IMG/VR virus record: IMGVR_UViG_3300032227_000993
DNA from: a virus
Lineage: Duplodnaviria; Caudoviricetes
Reading direction: 5' to 3' (one strand)
Length of the DNA stretch: 64,000 nucleotides
Shown here: positions 43,501 to 47,479 of the stretch, piece by piece
Numbering within the stretch: the first letter of the stretch is position 1
Layout: each line of letters opens with the position of its first letter
Translations under genes and position numbers: made by a program
The notes under the pieces: model-generated
What the model saw: the letters and a program-made list of their open reading frames with translations, nothing else
Database searches by the model: none
What the model was told of the DNA's origin: nothing

Positions 43501-43574
43501 TGGAGCGGGATATCGGAATCGAACCGATGACCGAAGATTGGAAATCTGCTGTTTTGCCCCTAAACTAATCCCGC
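43501..43574 (-). tRNA. tRNA-Gly(TCC)
   Basis: GCGGGAT/ATCCCGC-T-CCA, TTTCCAA loop. Confidence 0.93.
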
Positions 43575-43575
43575 A

Positions 43576-43650
43576 TGGTGGGCCTTCTAAGAATTGAACT
43601 TAGACTCCAACGATTATGAGTCGTTTGCTTTACCATTAAGCTAAAGGCCC
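43576..43650 (-). tRNA. tRNA-CAT, probably Ile2 (lysidine type)
   Basis: GGGCCTT/AAGGCCC-A-CCA, AACGA-CTCATAA-TCGTT, resembles bacterial Ile2; elongator Met not excluded. Confidence 0.85.
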
Positions 43651-43657
43651 AACAAAT

Positions 43658-43731
43658 TGGCTCCGAGCCAGGGAATTGAACCCCATCCAACAGGTTTGGA
43701 GTCTGCTGTGCTACCGTAACACTTGCCCGGA
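43658..43731 (-). tRNA. tRNA-Trp(CCA)
   Basis: CTCCAAA loop, G73, CCA. Confidence 0.88.
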
Positions 43732-43842
43732 ATTGTTAGGTGAGAGTTATCCTCTCAAAACCGTACCTTACAGCGTCCTGTAAGTTCACTAGTAAATCCT
43801 AGTTATCAAAGTGAGCATTGTTAAGAGGCTTGACCGGGTGTT

Positions 43843-43916
43843 TGGTTGCGGGTCCTGGAATCGCACCAGGGACTAGAGCTTATGAGACTCTCGAGATACT
43901 CCTTCTCCAACCCGCG
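43843..43916 (-). tRNA. initiator-like tRNA-Met(CAT)
   Basis: C1:A72 mismatch, CTCATAA loop; lacks three G-C pairs; T-loop TGCGATT. Confidence 0.85.
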
Positions 43917-43922
43917 ATAGAT

Positions 43923-43998
43923 TGGTGGAGGTGACAGGACTTGAACCCGCTACATCCTGCTTGCAAAGCAGGCGCTCTACCAGATGAGCTACACCCCC
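43923..43998 (-). tRNA. tRNA-Ala(TGC)
   Basis: GGGGGTG/CACCTCC G3:U70, TTTGCAA loop. Confidence 0.95.
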
Positions 43999-44006
43999 AA
44001 ATAATT

Positions 44007-44081
44007 TGGTACACCCTAGGAGAATCGAACTCCTCTTCCGCCCGTGAAAGGGGCGTGTCCTAACCGATAGACGAAGGGTGC
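44007..44081 (-). tRNA. tRNA-Glu(TTC)
   Basis: CGCCC-CTTTCAC-GGGCG, CCA. Confidence 0.95.
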
Positions 44082-44245
44082 TAAGTGCCCGGCTACGCTT
44101 ATGTCGTGCGCCCCGGGCTAGGAATAATCATCGTTAGCTAGATCCGCTCTAGCTGGCGTGATAGATTTAAGTCTAACCTATCCAACCCTTGACTTTCTGG
44201 CAAGTCCGCAACCCCCGATTAAACCCCCGAGCAGGGTGACATTCT
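44082..44245 (-). ncRNA. candidate structured ncRNA between tRNA-Tyr and tRNA-Glu
   Basis: GC-rich, four hairpins, no convincing ORF. Confidence 0.45.
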
Positions 44246-44329
44246 TGGTGGAGAATACTGGGATCGAACCAGTCATGCCGTAGGCGCCGGATTTACAGTC
44301 CAGTGCATCACCATTGATGCTTCTTCTCC
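44246..44329 (-). tRNA. tRNA-Tyr(GTA)
   Basis: CTGTAAA loop, long variable arm, CCA. Confidence 0.95.
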
Positions 44330-44330
44330 A

Positions 44331-44442
44331 TATAGTAAAGCGCACTCAATCCTAGAAGTTTCGAACCTTCTAAGTAACCCGCGGAAGGTGTACCGGTAAG
44401 ACTCCGCATTTATGTATTAAGTGGCAAGTGCGCTTTACTATA
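44331..44442 (-). ncRNA. candidate ncRNA closed by a 16-bp perfect stem with a T-loop hairpin
   Basis: TATAGTAAAGCGCACT...AGTGCGCTTTACTATA; internal GCGGA/TCCGC and TAGAAG-GTTCGAAA-CTTCTA. Confidence 0.55.
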
Positions 44443-44505
44443 CACTAATTTTTTGTTCTACAAGAAGAACTCCATCCTAGTGCCCGCCCGTTTGTGTTAA
44501 GTTAT

Positions 44506-44535
44506 AGTGTAACACAGGACCTCGTTTCCTGTCAA
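44506..44535 (-). promoter_or_regulatory. sigma70-like promoter with an inverted repeat in the spacer
   Basis: TTGACA-N18-TACACT; ACAGGA/TCCTGT palindrome. Confidence 0.55.
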
Positions 44536-44551
44536 CCACTTATCTTGCTGT

Positions 44552-44722
44552 TTAATCTTCGATTTGAAAATAAACAGCGTCTCGTGCCTGGATCATTTCC
44601 TTGGCACGTTGGATCTTGTTTTGAAACAGTCTGGTCTTCATTTCTTCAGTCAGCGTTAAGTTACTGACTTCCCAGGCTTGTTTTACAACTCGATCGTTTA
44701 GATTACTGTAATCTATTGTCAT
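44552..44722 (-). CDS. small hypothetical protein (56 aa)
   Basis: Not in track; AAGGA RBS; MTIDYSNLNDRVVKQAWEV... Confidence 0.6.
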   Translation of the reverse strand: MTIDYSNLNDRVVKQAWEVSNLTLTEEMKTRLFQNKIQRAKEMIQARDAVYFQIED

Positions 44723-44736
44723 ACATTTCCTTTCAT

Positions 44737-44767
44737 AAAAAAAGCCCCTAACTACTTAGAGGCTTTT
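44737..44767 (-). terminator. intrinsic terminator (attenuator)
   Basis: AAAAGCCTCTAA-GTAG-TTAGGGGCTTTTTTT. Confidence 0.8.
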
Positions 44768-44803
44768 GAATAATAAACAAATACACACTACTATTCAAAC
44801 GCC
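44761..44803 (-). promoter_or_regulatory. antiterminator hairpin
   Basis: GGCGTTTGAATA pairs with TATTCAAAAGCC (11/12), overlapping the terminator 5' arm. Confidence 0.65.
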
Positions 44804-44892
44804 TTGACTCCTAGTTCTACGCCGCAACCATTGGCCCACACCCCAATTTGATTAGGAAGTATTGTTAAGAGTGTATATATTAAATGTTTCAT
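44791..44892 (-). CDS. putative leader peptide (33 aa)
   Basis: MKHLIYTLLTILPNQIGVWANGCGVELGVKAFE between a consensus promoter and a terminator. Confidence 0.6.
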   Translation of the reverse strand: MKHLIYTLLTILPNQIGVWANGCGVELGVKAFE

Positions 44893-44901
44893 AATAGTGT
44901 T

Positions 44902-44930
44902 ATTGTACTAGGTTATTTATCTTTTGTCAA
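44902..44930 (-). promoter_or_regulatory. sigma70 promoter
   Basis: TTGACA-N17-TACAAT. Confidence 0.8.
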
Positions 44931-44958: not shown

Positions 44959-45975
44959 ATGCTCAAACTCCACGAAATACAACAACTTCAGATAGAATTA
45001 ACCACTAGATGCAATGCTCGCTGTCCTTTGTGTATGCGAAACTATCGCGGTATGGAACACAACGATGGTTATCCAGAAACAGAACTACGCTTGGCAGATA
45101 TCCAGCGGATGTTCCCCGCAGAATTTCTAAAACAAATCAAACGGATACTGTTCAACGGTAATCTTGGAGATTTTGGTCTGGCCAAAGACAGCATAGAAAT
45201 AGTAAAATATTTTTTAGCCAACGGCATCAAAGAAATTGATATTTCCACCAACGGAAGTATGCGAACCACAGATTGGTGGGCACAATTAGCCTTACCAGGA
45301 GTTACTGTAGGGTTTGCTCTGGATGGCATGGCCGACACACACCATTTGTACAGACAAGACACAGACTGGCACAAAATTATTGAAAACGCTCAAGCTCTAA
45401 TACAGGCTGGCGGACGTGCTGTATGGCGTTTCATTCCATTTGATCACAATCGACATCAGATGGAAACTTGCCGGGCATTTTCAAAACAATTGGGATTTGT
45501 TGATTTTCAGGACATTGGGCATGGAAGAAATCGAACTTATGTCTACAATCGTACTGGCGAGTACAGTCATCTTATCGGCGAACCGTTTCAGCCATCGGAC
45601 TTGACCGACCCGCCCAAGATACAACAACTGGTAGAGCATCATCTTACTTGGTTTGATCCAAAAACATTCAAACAAGAACAAGACACCAGCGATTTGGAAA
45701 TTGATTGCCATCATAAACGATTCAAGGAACTGTATGTAGCTGCCAATGGAGAAGTGTATCCCTGCTGTTTTCTTGGCTTTTATCCGCAGACAATGCATCA
45801 TCCAGGCAATGTACAATTAAAACCTATTGTAAAACAAAACAATGCGTTGCACTACAGTTTAGAAACGTGTATTGAGTGGTTCAACGACGTAGAGGAATCA
45901 TGGCATCGCGAAAGCATTGCCGACGGTAGGATGTACATTTGTGTCAATACCTGTGCCGTAAAAAAAGCACCCTAG
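44959..45975 (+). CDS. radical SAM protein with C-terminal SPASM-like domain
   Basis: CNARCPLC, NGNLGD, GEVYPCCF..C..TC; start MLKLH after TAAATA at 44945. Confidence 0.9.
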   Translation: MLKLHEIQQLQIELTTRCNARCPLCMRNYRGMEHNDGYPETELRLADIQRMFPAEFLKQIKRILFNGNLGDFGLAKDSIEIVKYFLANGIKEIDISTNGSMRTTDWWAQLALPGVTVGFALDGMADTHHLYRQDTDWHKIIENAQALIQAGGRAVWRFIPFDHNRHQMETCRAFSKQLGFVDFQDIGHGRNRTYVYNRTGEYSHLIGEPFQPSDLTDPPKIQQLVEHHLTWFDPKTFKQEQDTSDLEIDCHHKRFKELYVAANGEVYPCCFLGFYPQTMHHPGNVQLKPIVKQNNALHYSLETCIEWFNDVEESWHRESIADGRMYICVNTCAVKKAP

Positions 45976-46000: not shown

Positions 46001-46738
46001 TTATTCAAATGTTTTGGTTAATGTAGCTACCCAAGCATCTTTGTACAACTGCTGACCATTGACGGTATTAGCACGTTGATTCTGAGTAGTCATGCTTGTG
46101 TTTGTGTAATAACGAACACCAATATCCCAAGCCTTGGGTAATGTGTAAACAGCACCTACGTTGATATCATTATAACTTGCGTTACCATGATTAGCAACTG
46201 CTGTACGACCATAGTGAGCAACAAAACTCAAGTCTTTGAGTTTAGCTGTCAAAGGAGCGAACGATTGTTTAACATCGGCTTGATAGTATTGTGTACCAGC
46301 ACTATTATTCACACCAAAGTAATTACTAGTAGAACGACTGTACTTAAGAGCAACAGGACCATAACCTACGCCAGCATACAATTCTTGTGTGTTGAAGTTA
46401 GGATTTTTACCATTGGTAGCATTAGGATAAAAATAGTTATAAGAACCAACATCGATTGTTAGACCCTTGTAAATATCTTTCTTGTATCCAGCATAGATGT
46501 CTGACTCTACACCAGCGCCGTTTGTATACAGTTGGCTAGAAACACTACTGTTCCAGTTACCAATGTACAAACCGCTTGAGTGAGTGTAGTCGATACCACC
46601 TTGTACTGCTGGGCCATTTTGAGTTTGACTGATACCACGGAAACGGTAATCACTTGCCAAACCTAAATTGCCTGTTACTTGTGCGTGGGCAGAAGTGATA
46701 CCTGCAATCGCAAACAATGCTAATAATAATTTTTTCAT
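46001..46738 (-). CDS. TorF/TIGR02001-type outer-membrane beta-barrel protein
   Basis: Signal peptide, SDYRFRGISQT..PAVQGG.DY, E.D.YAGY, C-terminal F. Confidence 0.85.
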   Translation of the reverse strand: MKKLLLALFAIAGITSAHAQVTGNLGLASDYRFRGISQTQNGPAVQGGIDYTHSSGLYIGNWNSSVSSQLYTNGAGVESDIYAGYKKDIYKGLTIDVGSYNYFYPNATNGKNPNFNTQELYAGVGYGPVALKYSRSTSNYFGVNNSAGTQYYQADVKQSFAPLTAKLKDLSFVAHYGRTAVANHGNASYNDINVGAVYTLPKAWDIGVRYYTNTSMTTQNQRANTVNGQQLYKDAWVATLTKTFE

Positions 46739-46874: not shown

Positions 46875-47230
46875 GGTAGTTTCTGTTACGAGGCATTTCC
46901 TGCCCTAAGCAGTGATTAAACTGCTAAAGATTGGCGTTGTGCTGAACGAGCAGAGAACTTAACGTTCTTACCTGAAACAGTTACTTCGCCTGTAGATGTT
47001 TTTGCATTTACAAAGTTTGCTTGATTTACAGTCATCGCCTACTGTGTTGCCTCTTTCGCTATCTCGCCATGTCGAAACCGGTCGGACCCAACAAAGCATA
47101 CTGTGTGGATCTTACGATGGGCCCTCGAAGGGTTGTCCCCACACTCCAGTAGACAATATGCTTTGGTGGATCCGGGGAGAATCGAACTCCCGTCCACAGC
47201 GCCTTCACTACGAAGGAATTACAACAATTC
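46875..47230 (-). ncRNA. ssrA: circularly permuted (two-piece) tmRNA
   Basis: Acceptor piece ending GGGAGTTCGATTCTCCC-CGGATCC-A-CCA (3' end 47164) precedes the coding piece starting GGGTCCG-ACCGGTTTCGAC (47089); G3:U70; tag frame 47005-46916. Confidence 0.9.
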
Positions 47231-47239
47231 TTTTAAAAC

Positions 47240-47479
47240 TTACAGAACGATTTCAGCACTTGCTGGATTGTACGAGGTAATGTATGTGATCCAAGCATCA
47301 GCAGCATTTGTATCTTTCCAAGTACGAGCAACAGTATATTGTGTTTGACCAAAAGTTCTAGTAGCAGCACCGTCGGTGTCGCCATTAGCAACTAATTGTG
47401 CAACATATTCTGTGATAGCAGTACTTTCGGCAGTTGTTGGAGTTCCGTTATTCCAAGTTACTAGTGTGTTAGTAGTCAT
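47240..47479 (-). CDS. hypothetical protein
   Basis: 79-aa T/A-rich ORF with AAGGA RBS. Confidence 0.65.
   Translation of the reverse strand: MTTNTLVTWNNGTPTTAESTAITEYVAQLVANGDTDGAATRTFGQTQYTVARTWKDTNAADAWITYITSYNPASAEIVL

Follow-up and report, generated by a model that had tools for sequence, protein, structure and literature searches.

The best-known transcription attenuators stand before amino-acid operons, as the trpL, hisL, pheL, thrL and leuL leaders and the multivalent ilvGMEDA leader. A second, inhibition-responsive class includes bmrB-bmrCD of Bacillus subtilis and the ABC-F and efflux resistance genes, each controlled by an open reading frame (ORF) upstream of it (uORF). In T-box riboswitches and the pheST attenuator, the charging of transfer RNA (tRNA) controls genes of the translation apparatus, and the T-boxes bind the uncharged tRNA directly. 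Here we describe a putative leader-peptide attenuator ahead of the tRNA genes of a large freshwater phage (Duplodnaviria; Caudoviricetes). It lies on the minus strand of a 64,000-nucleotide (nt) DNA, IMG/VR record IMGVR_UViG_3300032227_000993. We call this whole stretch the window and count positions from its first letter. What we find is a strongly conserved, apparently translation-coupled terminator/antiterminator switch heading a phage tRNA operon, and we infer its mechanism from sequence and predicted folding.

For the attenuation of amino-acid operons, see Yanofsky (1981, as cited in PMC4007540). Like those attenuators, our locus combines a short ORF with an intrinsic terminator and with an antiterminator that uses some of the same bases, and the position of the ribosome would decide which helix forms. 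Its leader of about 32 codons resembles the ilv leader in length, and its terminator is predicted to be thermodynamically stronger than the antiterminator, as in the amino-acid operons. Unlike them, it has no codon run, no conserved region 1:2 pairing that we could find, and a leaderless ORF; an untranslated leader should here read through and not terminate; and the controlled genes would be phage tRNAs and a small protein, not biosynthetic enzymes. With the bmrB-bmrCD type it shares a uORF without an amino-acid run, an antiterminator that slowing of the ribosome would favor and an output that would help translation recover. However, those uORFs have a Shine-Dalgarno sequence and resistance-protein targets, whereas the targets here are viral tRNAs.

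Leaderless regulatory ORFs have precedents as well. Deinococcus deserti has 14 predicted leaderless leader peptides before tRNA-synthetase and amino-acid genes (PMC4007540), and in mycobacteria polycysteine leaderless short ORFs are cysteine-responsive attenuators (bioRxiv 10.1101/834739). These share with our leader a regulatory ORF at the 5′ end of the transcript, and in the mycobacterial case Cys codons are the sensing codons. Unlike our leader, they have clusters of the sensed codon and cellular metabolic or synthetase targets. To our knowledge, the mycobacterial leaderless attenuators are not terminator-based. The feedback logic from tRNA supply to genes of the decoding apparatus recalls the T-boxes and pheST; unlike the T-boxes, our leader gave no Rfam T-box match at E up to 5. 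Codon compensation and escape from tRNA-cleaving defences are among the roles proposed for phage tRNAs, in papers that do not treat regulation (PMC10264068, PMC11464382, PMC11555353). Our full-text literature searches found no paper on attenuation of phage tRNA genes.

Conservation of the leader unit in relatives

Searching viral and metagenome contigs with the 56-amino-acid (aa) protein encoded just behind the leader, and with its alignment, we collected 126 freshwater loci with 90 distinct upstream regions. The same unit of promoter, leader ORF, helix and terminator stands in 86 of the 90. The promoter reads TTGAC(A/C)-N17-TAtAAT with ATAAATA in its spacer, an ATG follows 6-11 nt past the -10 box, the leader ORF has 27-57 codons (mostly 32-34), the stop codon falls within the helix, and the unit closes with a GC hairpin and its U tract. 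Three more regions have an analogous ORF behind a 5′ untranslated region (UTR) of 21-61 nt, which in L132 carries a well-spaced AAGGA; just one region is without the unit. A second scan with the promoter and ATG pattern alone, not using the 56-aa protein, recovered the unit again, including further copies with tRNAs downstream. Since 86 of 90 loci carry the unit and a protein-independent scan refinds it, the arrangement lies far beyond chance. Overall, we obtained about 105 distinct leader peptides. The fold, frame and pairing counts given below refer to 84 distinct leaders, and the alignment-based counts to 80 sequences.

Arrays of tRNA genes follow the unit in 72 loci. The first tRNA begins at most 15 nt past the stop of the small ORF in 18 of these 72, so that no room is left there for another promoter. 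In L208, which we read by eye, a conserved non-coding RNA (ncRNA) and tRNAs come directly after the terminator; a small ORF is absent between them, and no promoter is evident there. For the family as a whole, the tRNAs lie behind the attenuator.

Coding signals in the leader ORF

The leader frame is open in 84/84 distinct relatives; the other two frames average 2-5 stops. At the given base composition, the chance of an open 32-codon frame is about 0.11 per independent frame, and the leader frame stays open through indels and through length variants of 27 to 53 codons. Changes at the third codon position exceed those at the first and second (35 vs 23 and 19; 42 vs 30 and 29, within subfamilies), and many positions of the leader peptide are hypervariable. 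These patterns indicate that the leader ORF is real and suggest that it is translated.

Terminator and antiterminator form a covarying switch

A GC-rich hairpin with U6-7 lies between the leader ORF and the first gene in every relative. This terminator equals the RNAalifold consensus and is paired in 99% of the cells across the 80 relatives, with compensatory changes. A single-register antiterminator on the MAFFT alignment gave 75% paired cells, and its internal loops vary among subfamilies; we therefore used per-sequence folds. Each nascent RNA was folded to its minimum free energy (MFE), from the presumed start site to just before the 3′ arm of the terminator. In these folds every one of the 84 leaders has its stop codon within the 5′ arm of the antiterminator. 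The terminator 5′ arm has at least 3 nt paired with the last ORF codons in all 84 and at least 4 nt in 80/84, and in family C all 7 nt of this arm are sequestered. The mean antiterminator energy is -20.0 kcal/mol, in comparison with -13.8 for shuffled upstream sequence.

The alignment points the same way. Seven of the 14 antiterminator pairs have changed on both sides, and 0/500 shuffles reached the observed covariation. Three arms covary, as in CCCUGGA with UUCAGGG, CCUCGGA with UCGAGG, and GCCUCUAA with GAGGYG. A leader's own antiterminator arms pair at -15.4 kcal/mol, while arms taken from leaders with a different terminator reach -11.2. The two helices are mutually exclusive and make up a conserved, covarying switch. 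The original prediction, made from the window alone, had described a leader-ORF/terminator/antiterminator device heading the tRNA operon and pointed to related phages for the alternative pairings. The geometry is kept in 84 distinct relatives, with covariation, and bears the device out.

The leader appears to depart from the trp design

The original prediction further likened the leader to the trp and his attenuators, and a trp-like design of four regions is not supported. In the window, the transcript can pair its 5′ end (44900-44891) with 44794-44785 (-11 kcal/mol). Family-wide, the pairing of 5′ end and post-stop segment has a cognate mean of -5.2 vs -4.9 for non-cognate partners and is strong solely in the window's subfamily. 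We make no claim for a trp-like region 1 outside this subfamily, because across the family the cognate pairing is no better than non-cognate or shuffled. We found no upstream competitor of the antiterminator in the predicted folds examined. Within the window subfamily alone, the segment 44785-44794 may be a possible anti-antiterminator. As we found no conserved region 1, loss of the start codon is predicted to raise, and not abolish, read-through, and this prediction separates the design from the trp paradigm.

The absence of a run of codons for one amino acid, which had been noticed in the window, was confirmed across the relatives; each leader has a Trp codon or two and, as a rule, a single Cys codon. 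Among the Rfam leader models the best score was 26.4 bits for Phe_leader, against a gathering threshold of 55, which nothing reached. Neither the leader nor the downstream ncRNA (the latter searched at E up to 5) matched an Rfam family.

Proposed mechanism and points against it

We consider it likely, on the evidence of sequence and folding, that the unit is a ribosome-dependent transcription attenuator heading the phage tRNA operon. Host RNA polymerase would start from the promoter at 44930-44902. With its start no more than about 3 nt from the AUG, the transcript would let a ribosome load at its 5′ end without a Shine-Dalgarno sequence. While the 3′ arm of the terminator is still unmade, the last codons and the stop would pair with a stretch that runs into the base of its 5′ arm. 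A ribosome that keeps pace to the end of the ORF would melt and cover the antiterminator 5′ arm, upon which the terminator would form and the transcript would end at about 44737-44743. Without a loaded ribosome, or with one that lags or halts upwards of about 12 nt 5′ of that arm, the antiterminator would persist, and transcription would run on into the 56-aa ORF, then the conserved ncRNA and the tRNAs. As the signal we take how fast, or whether at all, ribosomes translate; the near-universal Trp and Cys codons would be the likeliest to limit the rate. A general sensor of translation speed is the safer reading than a tRNA-matched sensor.

Several observations weigh against this attenuator. In families A and B, the window included, just 3-4 of the 7-8 terminator-arm bases are sequestered. 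The antiterminator would be only a kinetic trap that forms first, the terminator being the predicted thermodynamic optimum in most relatives. The full-length MFE structure equals the terminator in 68/84 leaders, and in nine representative leaders only 1-17 (typically 4-7) kcal/mol separate the antiterminator state from this more stable terminator. The same holds for the trp attenuator, whose antiterminator also forms first and whose terminator is thermodynamically stronger. Leaderless initiation may be inefficient, and the device would then be leaky. Some stretches of the leader are invariant even at synonymous sites (e.g. CCA CAA CCC AAT in family C), and the body of the ORF is predicted to fold into a stable conserved domain. 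Because synonymous sites are invariant and the ORF body is folded, a constraint at the level of the RNA, or else of the peptide, would also seem to act on the ORF body beyond what the attenuator model explains.

The tRNAs of the window may also receive a second, unregulated promoter input at 44535-44506. The original prediction had raised this caveat, and it holds for the window, as a promoter-like site with 10/12 matches is present. Such a site occurs at the end of the small ORF (offsets -4 to +17) in the window and about 14/72 relatives; the homologous hexamer is TTGCAG in the remaining relatives read. Performing blastn and tblastn searches against 50,697 phage records, we obtained only a tRNA-Tyr match, in Limnohabitans phage DC31, and no cultured phage with the unit. 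A search of sequencing runs found no run recorded as RNA that contains the stretch; two runs that may be RNA, available as contigs, share 4-6% of its words.

Layout of the unit in the window

The promoter, leader ORF, antiterminator, terminator and 56-aa ORF all lie where the original prediction had placed them on the minus strand (Table 1), and its list of leader codons is correct.

Table 1. Features of the leader unit and of the region behind it in the window
Feature	Coordinates	Strand	Remarks
Sigma-70-type promoter TTGACA-N17-TACAAT	44902..44930	(-)	-35 box 44930-44925, -10 box 44907-44902; 11/12 matches
Leaderless or near-leaderless 33-codon leader ORF, peptide MKHLIYTLLTILPNQIGVWANGCGVELGVKAFE	44791..44892	(-)	Stop TAG 44793-44791
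Hairpin AUUGG...CCAAU within the folded leader-ORF body	44830..44847	(-)	Predicted by RNA folding; kept in families A and B by alifold
Antiterminator 5′ arm GGCGTTTGAATA	44792..44803	(-)	Last four codons and first two bases of the stop codon
Antiterminator 3′ arm TATTCAAAAGCC	44761..44772	(-)	Pairs 11/12 with 44803-44792
Intrinsic terminator GCCUCUAA-GUAG-UUAGGGGC, then U7	44737..44763	(-)	Predicted by RNAfold
Post-stop segment pairing with the transcript 5′ end (44900-44891)	44785..44794	(-)	10 base pairs (bp) in the MFE fold
Shine-Dalgarno sequence AAAGGAAA and 56-aa ORF (44722-44552)	44552..44733	(-)	First gene 3′ of the terminator
Internal promoter-like site TTGACA-N18-TACACT, TG 5′ of the -10 box	44506..44535	(-)	10/12 matches
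Conserved structured RNA between the 56-aa ORF and tRNA-Tyr	44432..44540 (approximate)	(-)	Covarying hairpin stems, motif GGGCGG
First tRNA block: Tyr(GTA), Glu(TTC), Ala(TGC), Met(CAT), Trp(CCA), Met(CAT), Gly(TCC)	43501..44329	(-)	

The leader ATG at 44892 stands 9 nt 3′ of the -10 box and has no Shine-Dalgarno sequence. Two further TTGACA-17-TACAAT promoters of the window (40231 and 39477) precede ordinary genes with an AAGGAG Shine-Dalgarno sequence, which makes the missing 5′ leader a peculiarity of this ORF. The Trp codon of the leader lies at 44838-44836 and the Cys codon at 44826-44824. The final GCC of the antiterminator 3′ arm (44763-44761) is the base of the terminator 5′ arm. At the DNA level the terminator consists of the stem GCCTCTAA (44763-44756) and TTAGGGGC (44751-44744), the loop GTAG and the U run 44743-44737, and RNAfold lengthens its stem to 12 bp. 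A consensus scan for terminators omitted this clear terminator (44737-44763), we think because the stem extension uses up the U run, and silence of that scan does not rule a terminator out. In most relatives the terminator loop is unusually long, with 9 nt, and is conserved (ACUAAACAC or ACUAACAAC, e.g. L134:2960-2975), and the window subfamily has the 4-nt GUAG.

The ATAAATA in the promoter spacer (44908-44924 in the window) is conserved among the relatives and stands at a fixed distance (loci L148-L263). It may mark a promoter subclass or a factor binding site. The promoter pattern also matched the promoters of unrelated small ORFs in other viral contigs, such as the 46-aa MKLKKLIHKLYEAC... 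family.

Between the 56-aa ORF and tRNA-Tyr(GTA) lie about 220 nt of non-coding DNA in the window. This tRNA (44329-44249, (-)) has a long variable arm and an encoded CCA and scores 37.6 bits with Rfam; ARAGORN missed it, though it detects the homologues in relatives. The neighbors in the window are auxiliary genes of a large phage.

Do the leader codons match the phage tRNAs?

The original prediction held that the leader codons sample the phage's own tRNA set. Put more narrowly, the attenuator would be tuned to this repertoire, above all to Trp and Cys, and the leader would be a decoding-speed sensor in a feedback loop on the tRNAs that the operon supplies, chiefly tRNA-Trp and tRNA-Cys. Codons slowed by high demand, by decay of host tRNAs or by cleavage through defence nucleases would let the antiterminator win and switch the tRNA array on. 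We regard this tuning as possible but doubtful.

What speaks for it are the Trp and Cys codons. Both occur in 104/105 distinct leaders, in at least eight orders and spacings, and these are the most enriched amino acids of the leaders (2-fold). The corresponding tRNAs are the commonest of the arrays (tRNA-Trp in 35/39, tRNA-Cys in 33/39), and both are low-copy in many bacteria. The enrichment of amino acids in the leaders tracks the prevalence of their tRNAs (Spearman 0.67, P 0.001), and the conserved peptide columns are biased toward amino acids for which the phage has a tRNA (odds ratio 2.5, P 0.003). Most Trp codons lie 22-33 nt and most Cys codons 13-21 nt 5′ of the antiterminator arm (34 and 22 nt in the window), and at these distances a ribosome stalled on them would spare the arm.

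The overall match of codons to tRNAs argues the other way. The 11 anticodon species of the window read 14 of 32 leader codons against 36% expected (P 0.22); under liberal wobble, with ATA read by a CAT tRNA, they read 17 of 32 (P 0.06). For the relatives, we took the tRNAs within about 3 kb and used the 34 loci with at least five tRNAs in reach. The observed/expected match there is 0.94-1.44 by family, and swapping in the tRNA set of another locus costs about 5% of the matches (P 0.02; 0.06 within families). All of this testing was post hoc, and since the families are related to one another, their counts are not independent. Between 55 and 80% of leader codons have no phage tRNA in reach, so that most leader codons depend on host tRNAs; the match to a locus's own set is barely better than to that of another locus. 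Moreover, the sensing would hang on a single Trp and a single Cys codon without a run, no tRNA-Cys was found within the 64-kb window, and phage tRNAs are lacking for the amino acids in half of the conserved columns. The MFE folds of family C place UGG and UGY within ORF-body helices, so that RNA structure could also explain their conservation.

The sampling claim finds weak to moderate support: the near-universal Trp and Cys codons and the correlation with tRNA prevalence are its stronger points, and its general codon coverage in the window is marginal. The proposed codon-enrichment test was run against random 33-codon stretches of the phage's own genes. The window leader samples 10 of 11 anticodons compared with 7.1-7.3 in those stretches (P 0.03-0.05).

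Other explanations of the leader

Alternatively, the leader could be an independent small gene, for a micro-protein or an sRNA (small RNA) of about 150 nt, with its own promoter and terminator; the helix would stabilize its 3′ end, and read-through would be incidental. A strong promoter, an RNA of about 150 nt and a terminator are indeed what makes up an sRNA gene, and here the body of the ORF is folded and the peptide partly conserved. In Sinorhizobium, terminated attenuator RNAs and leader peptides are reported to be able to act in trans (PMC6614838, PMC7298713). We nevertheless find this explanation unlikely. It leaves unexplained why the stop codon and the base of the terminator arm lie in the helix and why three arms covary, the downstream genes are often without a promoter of their own (L208, for example), and many positions of the peptide are hypervariable.

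Less probable still is a switch worked not by the ribosome but by some protein or small molecule bound to the antiterminator or to the folded body of the ORF, the ORF being incidental. The stable conserved domain and the stretches invariant at synonymous sites would suit such a factor. Against it stand the frame that remains open in every leader despite indels, the constant place of the stop codon within the antiterminator arm, and an ATG that keeps to the 5′ end or, behind a long leader, has a Shine-Dalgarno sequence (clearly so in L132). No Rfam riboswitch was matched either.

A precursor of a ribosomally synthesized and post-translationally modified peptide (RiPP) for the neighboring radical-SAM/SPASM enzyme (44959-45975, (+)) is very improbable: in the window a small Cys- and Trp-containing peptide does adjoin that gene, but the leader is linked to the terminator and tRNAs instead, and the synteny is not conserved, the upstream gene in most relatives read being an outer-membrane protein, an HNH protein or other.

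Genes and RNAs behind the attenuator

The 56-aa protein has no Pfam or PHROG family, no Atlas lead and no match among 50,697 phage records. Its 105 homologues are all hypothetical and lie on contigs up to 361 kb; three stray source names among them were taken as mislabels. The structure model has two helices in a predicted helical hairpin (pLDDT, predicted local distance difference test, 74) and is uninformative on function. The first gene behind the attenuator is exchangeable: it may be of the 56-aa family, of a 52-aa family, an 81-aa Cys-rich protein or, as in L208, absent. In L243, L174, L189, L202 and L237 (about 200 nt past the promoter) and in L252, an unrelated-looking 52-aa family (MENKKQNKFFL...MIAQIEA...) or an 81-aa ORF takes the place of the 56-aa ORF.

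The structured ncRNA (window 44432-44540; e.g. L002:3180-3290, L064, L208) has a first hairpin NNGG-AAACGAGNU-CCNN and a second with a covarying stem and the loop GCACUAUAAAC. It also has single-stranded AAAYGGGCGG, a long helix around GGAUGRA and an inner hairpin, and an A-rich tail. The internal promoter-like site of the window lies within this conserved RNA. In families E and F, a strong promoter ends just 5′ of it.

Upstream, L003, L005, L006 and L012 share a synteny of a permuted beta-type transfer-messenger RNA (tmRNA), a Gcw_chp-family outer-membrane protein gene, the attenuator, the small ORF and the tRNA array. The window counterparts lie at 46973-47269, 46001-46738 and 44552-44930, all (-), and the radical-SAM/SPASM gene 44959-45975 (+) is inserted divergently.

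Discussion

Why phages carry tRNA genes is debated, and the regulation of these genes has barely been studied. Our sequence comparison and folds suggest that a large freshwater phage and about 100 relatives probably make more of such an operon while decoding by ribosomes is slow. Some 100 natural variants of the sequence, with compensatory changes, are available in the family, and the model is open to testing by reporter fusions. Leader-peptide attenuation would extend from amino-acid and synthetase genes to tRNA genes. If the tRNA-sensing leader is true, it would amount to a self-regulating tRNA supply in a virus. A conserved translation-sensing attenuator at this place would show that at least some large phages adjust their tRNA supply to the translation state of the infected cell.

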